64,000 nt of DNA from assembly GCA_030324005.1 (NCBI GenBank), contig JARDVH010000115.1, forward strand, positions 75,541,530 through 75,605,529. The letters are read 5' to 3'. Each line of letters starts with the position of its first letter. Position 1 is the first letter of the stretch. The notes under the pieces are model-generated. The model searched no databases, was not told where the DNA came from, and saw only the letters and a list, made by a program, of their open reading frames with translations. This DNA comes from Negaprion brevirostris. Taxonomy: Eukaryota. Made by a program: the position numbers and the translations under genes. Positions 51,472-51,724 of this stretch are shown one piece after another.

Positions 51472-51530
51472 GTTCATTAACGCCAGGAGAAGGATAGTAC
51501 AACCCATGATCGACCAATCAAATCGAGCAG
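51472..51530 (+). CDS. meis2: Meis2 homeodomain helix-3 exon (59 bp): (W)FINARRRIVQPMIDQSNRA; non-canonical GC donor
   Basis: Acceptor ttgttccag|G TTC ATT AAC GCC AGG AGA AGG completes the split W codon of the previous exon. Ends GCA G|gcaagt. Phase fits the next exon. Confidence 0.97.
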
Positions 51531-51614
51531 GCAAGTCCCAAGTAGTAACTAAATTCAGATCCCACAAGCACAAATGCGATTCGAATTATTCCTGACAAGT
51601 TCCTTCACCTGGTA

Positions 51615-51620
51615 AATAAA
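51615..51620 (+). terminator. Candidate intronic poly(A) signal AATAAA
   Basis: 85 nt downstream of the GC donor, overlapping in-frame AAA TAA codons. Confidence 0.4.
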
Positions 51621-51724
51621 ACTGACAGCTCGGCATTCTGGAAGAGTTTTCACTTCAGAATCCCAATGCAATCTCAGCTAAACTGCTGCCAGCAGGATTC
51701 CCCTCACTCTCACAGAAGTTGCTT

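Follow-up and report, generated by a model that had tools for sequence, protein, structure and literature searches.

A probably broken exon 10-prime in Meis2 of the shark Negaprion brevirostris

Meis genes carry, directly after exon 10, a segment described as exon 10-prime by Irimia et al. (2011; PMC3140891). According to the accessible part of that paper, on which all statements taken from it here rest, the segment results from alternative use of a second 5' splice site located downstream; the upstream donor is often GC, and the sequence of the segment is conserved to non-bilaterians. Inclusion in vertebrates is very low, with 27/27 human and 6/6 mouse ESTs excluding it, and at least nine independent losses were reported. 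In chicken Meis2, exon 10-prime contains in-frame stops, which the authors read as an ongoing loss. Why a segment as old as cnidarians is rarely included and often lost is left open there, and the words "shark" and "polyadenylation" have 0 matches each in this part of the text.

Here we analysed the 3' half of a Meis2 gene, located on the + strand of a 64,000-nt stretch of DNA from Negaprion brevirostris (the window). A sequence-only reading had proposed for the region after exon 10 mainly a composite terminal exon. Intronic polyadenylation at such exons involves a hexamer near the 5' splice site and leads to a truncated product. We found instead that the segment is the already known exon 10-prime, published as an internal alternative 5' splice extension joined to exon 11 (PMC3140891).

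The Meis2 locus and its two donors after exon 10

The features of the locus are collected in Table 1. Across exons 9, 10, 11 and 12a, a ray Meis2a and the window are identical at 98/98 residues, and Mustelus asterias Meis2a is the closest of the eight proteins compared for exon 12b, which makes a carcharhiniform shark the probable source. The 21-nt extension of exon 11 (54886-54906), known and typical of Meis2, is intact. A motif scan of the window, which holds 3505 N bases, did not find exons 1-8. Judging from the sequence around it, the AATAAA of the 3' UTR is likely the normal Meis2 poly(A) signal. By eye, two stretches (~17630-17800 and 51860-51960) are SINE-like, and we take them to resemble tRNA-derived SINE copies; a TTTA repeat begins near 51720.

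Table 1. Meis2 features in the window; a slash marks the exon-intron boundary of a donor
Feature	Positions	Strand	Basis
Exon 9, homeodomain middle	17441..17517	+	25/25 residues identical to eight Meis2 proteins
Exon 10, homeodomain end, 59 nt	51472..51530	+	19/19 residues identical
GC 5' splice site CAG/GCAAGT after exon 10	51528..51536	+	8/9 U1 consensus match
Exon 10-prime, 81 nt, 27 codons, frame-preserving	51531..51611	+	homology, donor phase
In-frame TGA, 10-prime codon 22, next base C	51593..51595	+	unchanged in four runs
Downstream GT 5' splice site CTG/GTAAAT	51609..51617	+	identical 9-mer in L023
AATAAA over donor positions +4 to +9, candidate signal only	51615..51620	+	sequence match
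Pyrimidine-rich 12-mer ending CAG	51647..51658	+	11/12 match to L023, same distance
Exon 11, two acceptors, starts 54886 and 54907	54886..54996	+	
Exon 12a, known stop-bearing exon, intact, stop at 55355-57	55299..55394	+	
Exon 12b, coding part	57697..57983	+	92/94 residues identical to Mustelus asterias Meis2a
AATAAA in 3' UTR, probable normal poly(A) signal	59057..59062	+	TGTA upstream, T-rich downstream

The non-canonical G/GCAAGT donor, the 29 codons obtained by reading on from it, the TGA at codon 22 followed by C, the TAA (51617-19) and the AATAAA are exactly as the sequence-only reading had described them. Absent from that description is a GT donor, whose boundary (51611/51612) lies 81 nt 3' of the GC donor and leaves the phase unchanged. 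The last two codons (GK), the TAA and the AATAAA all fall on this donor. The apparent ending in GK and a stop would be the outcome of translating across a G/GTAAAT donor, and the AATAAA is likely a by-product of the GT donor followed by two A's. In the window, GTAAATA is followed by AA at 3 of 15 places, this one included, and the + strand holds 63 copies of AATAAA (1.04 per kb). The GC donor had been considered weak, but it matches the U1 consensus as commonly given at 8/9 positions, whereas the GT donor, like the donors of exons 9, 11 and 12a, reaches 7/9. Orthologous proteins and the available part of PMC3140891 suggest that the GC donor is the main one.

The same arrangement was recovered in a metagenome scan that yielded 87 loci, mostly invertebrate by appearance. 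GCAAGT was found in 3 of them and a coding 10-prime in only one of these 3, a teleost-type Meis1 locus (L023), where the same GC donor and a GT donor identical in its 9-mer to that of the window lie 81 nt apart. Another sequence of the scan (L062) is a spliced Meis2 transcript skipping 10-prime. In two invertebrate-looking Meis loci (L025 and L047), the GC donor is kept and the 10-prime peptide is gone.

Exon 10-prime in other animals

A protein search with exon 10 plus the extension as query returned 161 proteins, and the counts below rest on the 120 listed. The coding likeness of 10-prime is far beyond chance, the peptide being homologous across animals with best matches at E ~1e-13. In 29 of the 120 listed homologues, the 27 residues are followed directly by vertebrate exon 11 (the pattern gave 30, from which P0051 was dropped as a false match); this joining rests on RefSeq splice forms, which are automatic gene models. 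Among the same 120, 9 have GK as their last residues, 24 continue beyond GK or GN (a rough pattern, invertebrates included), 5 are short-ending proteins and 52 have other continuations, cnidarians among them. Since 10-prime is internal coding sequence in cnidarians, it is older than vertebrates. The earlier proposal of an ancient coding extension common to Meis1 and Meis2 is thus borne out, with an even older origin.

Eight of the 9 records ending in GK are unnamed and have no Pfam domain, and they probably stem from gene calling on unspliced DNA. The ninth is a hypothetical protein. Close relatives of these records read on past GK. A mammalian MEIS1 peptide given in the sequence-only reading has a letter-for-letter match in P0008, an unnamed 133-aa record without Pfam domain, but no curated mammalian isoform ending there was confirmed among the records compared. 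In seal MEIS1 (P0031), the 27 residues of P0008 run on into exon 11.

Within cartilaginous fish, Meis2 models with an intact and spliced 10-prime were found in Chiloscyllium plagiosum, Pristiophorus, Hypanus, Mobula hypostoma, Hemitrygon and Pristis. In Meis1, 12 of the 15 proteins listed for one cluster keep the segment, and 3 lack the region. The Meis2a models of Mobula birostris and Narcine (P0017, P0137, P0139 and P0141) have a frameshift inside 10-prime, which is intact in Mobula hypostoma; these frameshifts could be either further losses or assembly errors. Open 10-prime sequences with 9-12 differences in 27 residues are present in wolf Meis2 (P0012) and in unnamed mammal-type records (P0009, P0013 and P0014), whereas mammalian Meis2 is counted as having lost the segment in the part of PMC3140891 available.

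The in-frame stop and its interpretation

Codon 22 encodes Ser in Meis2 of the six other cartilaginous fish, of turtles, birds and sturgeon, which agrees with the earlier suggestion that the stop is lineage-specific. We compared 4 of 24 listed sequencing runs, from four studies of related animals (of the differences in each contig, those away from its ends are listed, 3/8, 3/5, 3/5 and 7/11). All four cover 51593-51620, and at contig level no other letter is present at the TGA, while the AATAAA and the GT donor are free of variants. The GC donor, too, is unchanged in every run that covers it, the animals being close kin. Four of the listed variable sites are inside 10-prime, three of them residue-changing, and exon 10 has none in the three runs that cover it. 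The difference between 4/81 sites in 10-prime and 0/59 in exon 10 gives p=0.14; against 6/177 listed flank sites it gives p=0.51, from small numbers. In run X19, RNA by guess (depth 3.3), one contig (51547-51716) spans the donor and the AATAAA without being spliced and shows no loose end. Because its source may be DNA, this contig was left out of the count.

Compared with the ray form, the 10-prime of the window differs at 9 of 27 residues, while the bamboo shark differs at 2, the sawshark at 3, and turtles and birds at 4. The excess of changes in the window has p=0.04 against the bamboo shark and p=0.10 against the sawshark. The contrast between these 9/27 changes and 0/98 in exons 9-12a points to decay. 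We suggest, with a probability of about 0.74, that the TGA makes Meis2 exon 10-prime a dead, decaying splicing option in this shark lineage. Most transcripts would use the GC donor, skip 10-prime and give a normal Meis2, and the few using the GT donor would carry the stop and be removed by nonsense-mediated decay. As a general rule, a stop farther than 50 nt before a later junction leads to nonsense-mediated decay. With the GT donor used, the distance from the TGA to the exon 11/12 junction downstream would be 106-127 nt, so this fate is predicted by the 50-nt rule. Some observations count against decay: under neutral decay, there would be no need for both donors and the AATAAA to stay unchanged (although the animals are close kin), and the rate tests are weak (p=0.04, 0.10 and 0.14). 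The teleost Meis1 and Narcine Meis2a models that end past the donor, and a 12-mer in common with the paralogue, count in the same direction.

These last observations would fit transcripts in which neither donor is used and whose 3' end lies within intron 10, either through intron retention or through cleavage downstream of the AATAAA that overlaps the U1 site. The product would be a homeodomain protein without activation domain, ending here at the TGA. In a cluster of 22 members (P0055), 10 of the 15 listed are teleost Meis1 RefSeq models ending past the GT donor, and the Narcine Meis2a X1 model likewise ends past it; for all of these, retained introns, genuine 3' ends and model artefacts are conceivable. 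The past-donor tails of the ten teleost models (P0055, P0180-P0188) are variable, and four of the ten carry no isoform suffix. Mammal-type Meis2 records that stop after GK or read on as GNK would fit a kept AATAAA, without proving it. The 12-mer shared with L023 lies 27-38 nt past the hexamer, and its score is equalled by 9/1161 window tiles and 11/3000 shuffles, in a comparison of one pair noticed after the fact. The 12-mer may act as a poly(A) element downstream of the hexamer or as a cryptic acceptor, at 128 nt from the GC donor, or the match may be due to chance. In place of the AATAAA, L023 has AATACA, a weak poly(A) signal variant. However, the stop after GK and the AATAAA are both absent in this one paralogous locus read as DNA, which reads GKY and has no AATAAA or ATTAAA within 150 nt past the GT donor. 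The tails after GK differ between species in length and sequence, 10-prime is internal in cnidarians, no TGTA is present in the 60 nt upstream of the AATAAA at 51615-20, and the T content downstream of it is 0.32, against 0.44 at the 3' UTR signal. In the available part of a mouse Meis1 long-read study (PMC13379096), both homeodomain-bearing novel forms splice exon 10 to 11. A second protein search, restricted to cluster representatives with a query including exon 11 residues, gave 28 matches (223-711 aa) with no full-length form ending at GK, and it missed P0055. Among the papers listed in searches outside subscription journals, none dealt with 3' ends of Meis transcripts in intron 10, and the supplements of PMC5928244, as far as available, have no MEIS1 or MEIS2 row, which is uninformative since the table covers differential sites in lymphocytes. 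On account of the teleost and Narcine models, the GK and GNK records and the 12-mer, we keep such a terminal form as unlikely while giving it some weight. We consider it just as doubtful that the donor of 10-prime doubles as an ancient 3'-end switch, with a poly(A) hexamer (AATAAA in Meis2, AATACA in teleost Meis1) in the U1 site and the shared pyrimidine element 27-38 nt past it.

A kept stop is also conceivable, with the use of the GT donor tuning Meis2 dose via nonsense-mediated decay. The stop and both donors are common to the window and the covering runs, the TGA is more than 50 nt before a later junction, and stops are present in the same segment of chicken Meis2 (PMC3140891, in part). 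The segment, however, varies at about the rate of its flanks in the listed sites, and the same paper describes a vertebrate inclusion that is very low and a segment often lost outright, which makes this regulatory role improbable. Far less probable is translational read-through of the TGA, yielding the whole extension. The base after the TGA is a C, as pointed out with the suggestion of a leaky stop, but the context TGA CAAGTT fits neither of the read-through motifs CTAG and CARYYA, and the next codon is CGA in three runs. Since other species have Ser at codon 22, followed by Gly, the combination of a conserved stop and a conserved tail is absent. That the TGA is a sequencing or assembly error is the least probable of all, given that the four runs from four studies agree on it in their contigs.

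Comparison with known systems

If a terminal form were real, a possible dominant-negative Meis isoform would be under control of U1 against the 3'-end machinery, and if the donor were a 3'-end switch, vertebrate Meis1 and Meis2 would make a homeodomain-bearing isoform without activation domain, at which the teleost and Narcine models hint. With known composite terminal exons, the locus has in common a hexamer near a 5' splice site and a truncated product, predicted here from sequence; it differs in that the hexamer and the stop are not conserved in L023 and in that its cleavage site is at most putative. The homeodomain-less Meis1/hth isoforms of PMC13379096, in the part available, indicate that C-terminally truncated Meis products are real, but they end before the homeodomain. 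The 10-prime peptide is in none of the five novel mouse long-read forms listed there, one of which comes without a protein prediction; the listing leaves out two annotated forms.

The broken exon 10-prime, which we favour, places the shark alongside chicken Meis2 as described in the accessible part of PMC3140891, with the same paralogue, the same segment and a stop inside it. The two stops would differ in origin, the chicken one having probably arisen independently, because 10-prime is intact in turtles, in birds other than chicken and in several sharks and rays. By itself, the shark stop means little. Cartilaginous fish nevertheless offer a small natural test of why the segment is rarely included and often lost, because Meis1 keeps it and Meis2 has it intact in some lineages and broken in others. 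With the Meis/hth exon 10-prime in general (PMC3140891, in part), the locus shares the position after exon 10, the GC upstream donor, the second donor downstream, the conserved peptide, the presence in both Meis1 and Meis2 and the loss of coding sense in some genes. What the shark Meis2 stop adds is a further case of the loss described there.
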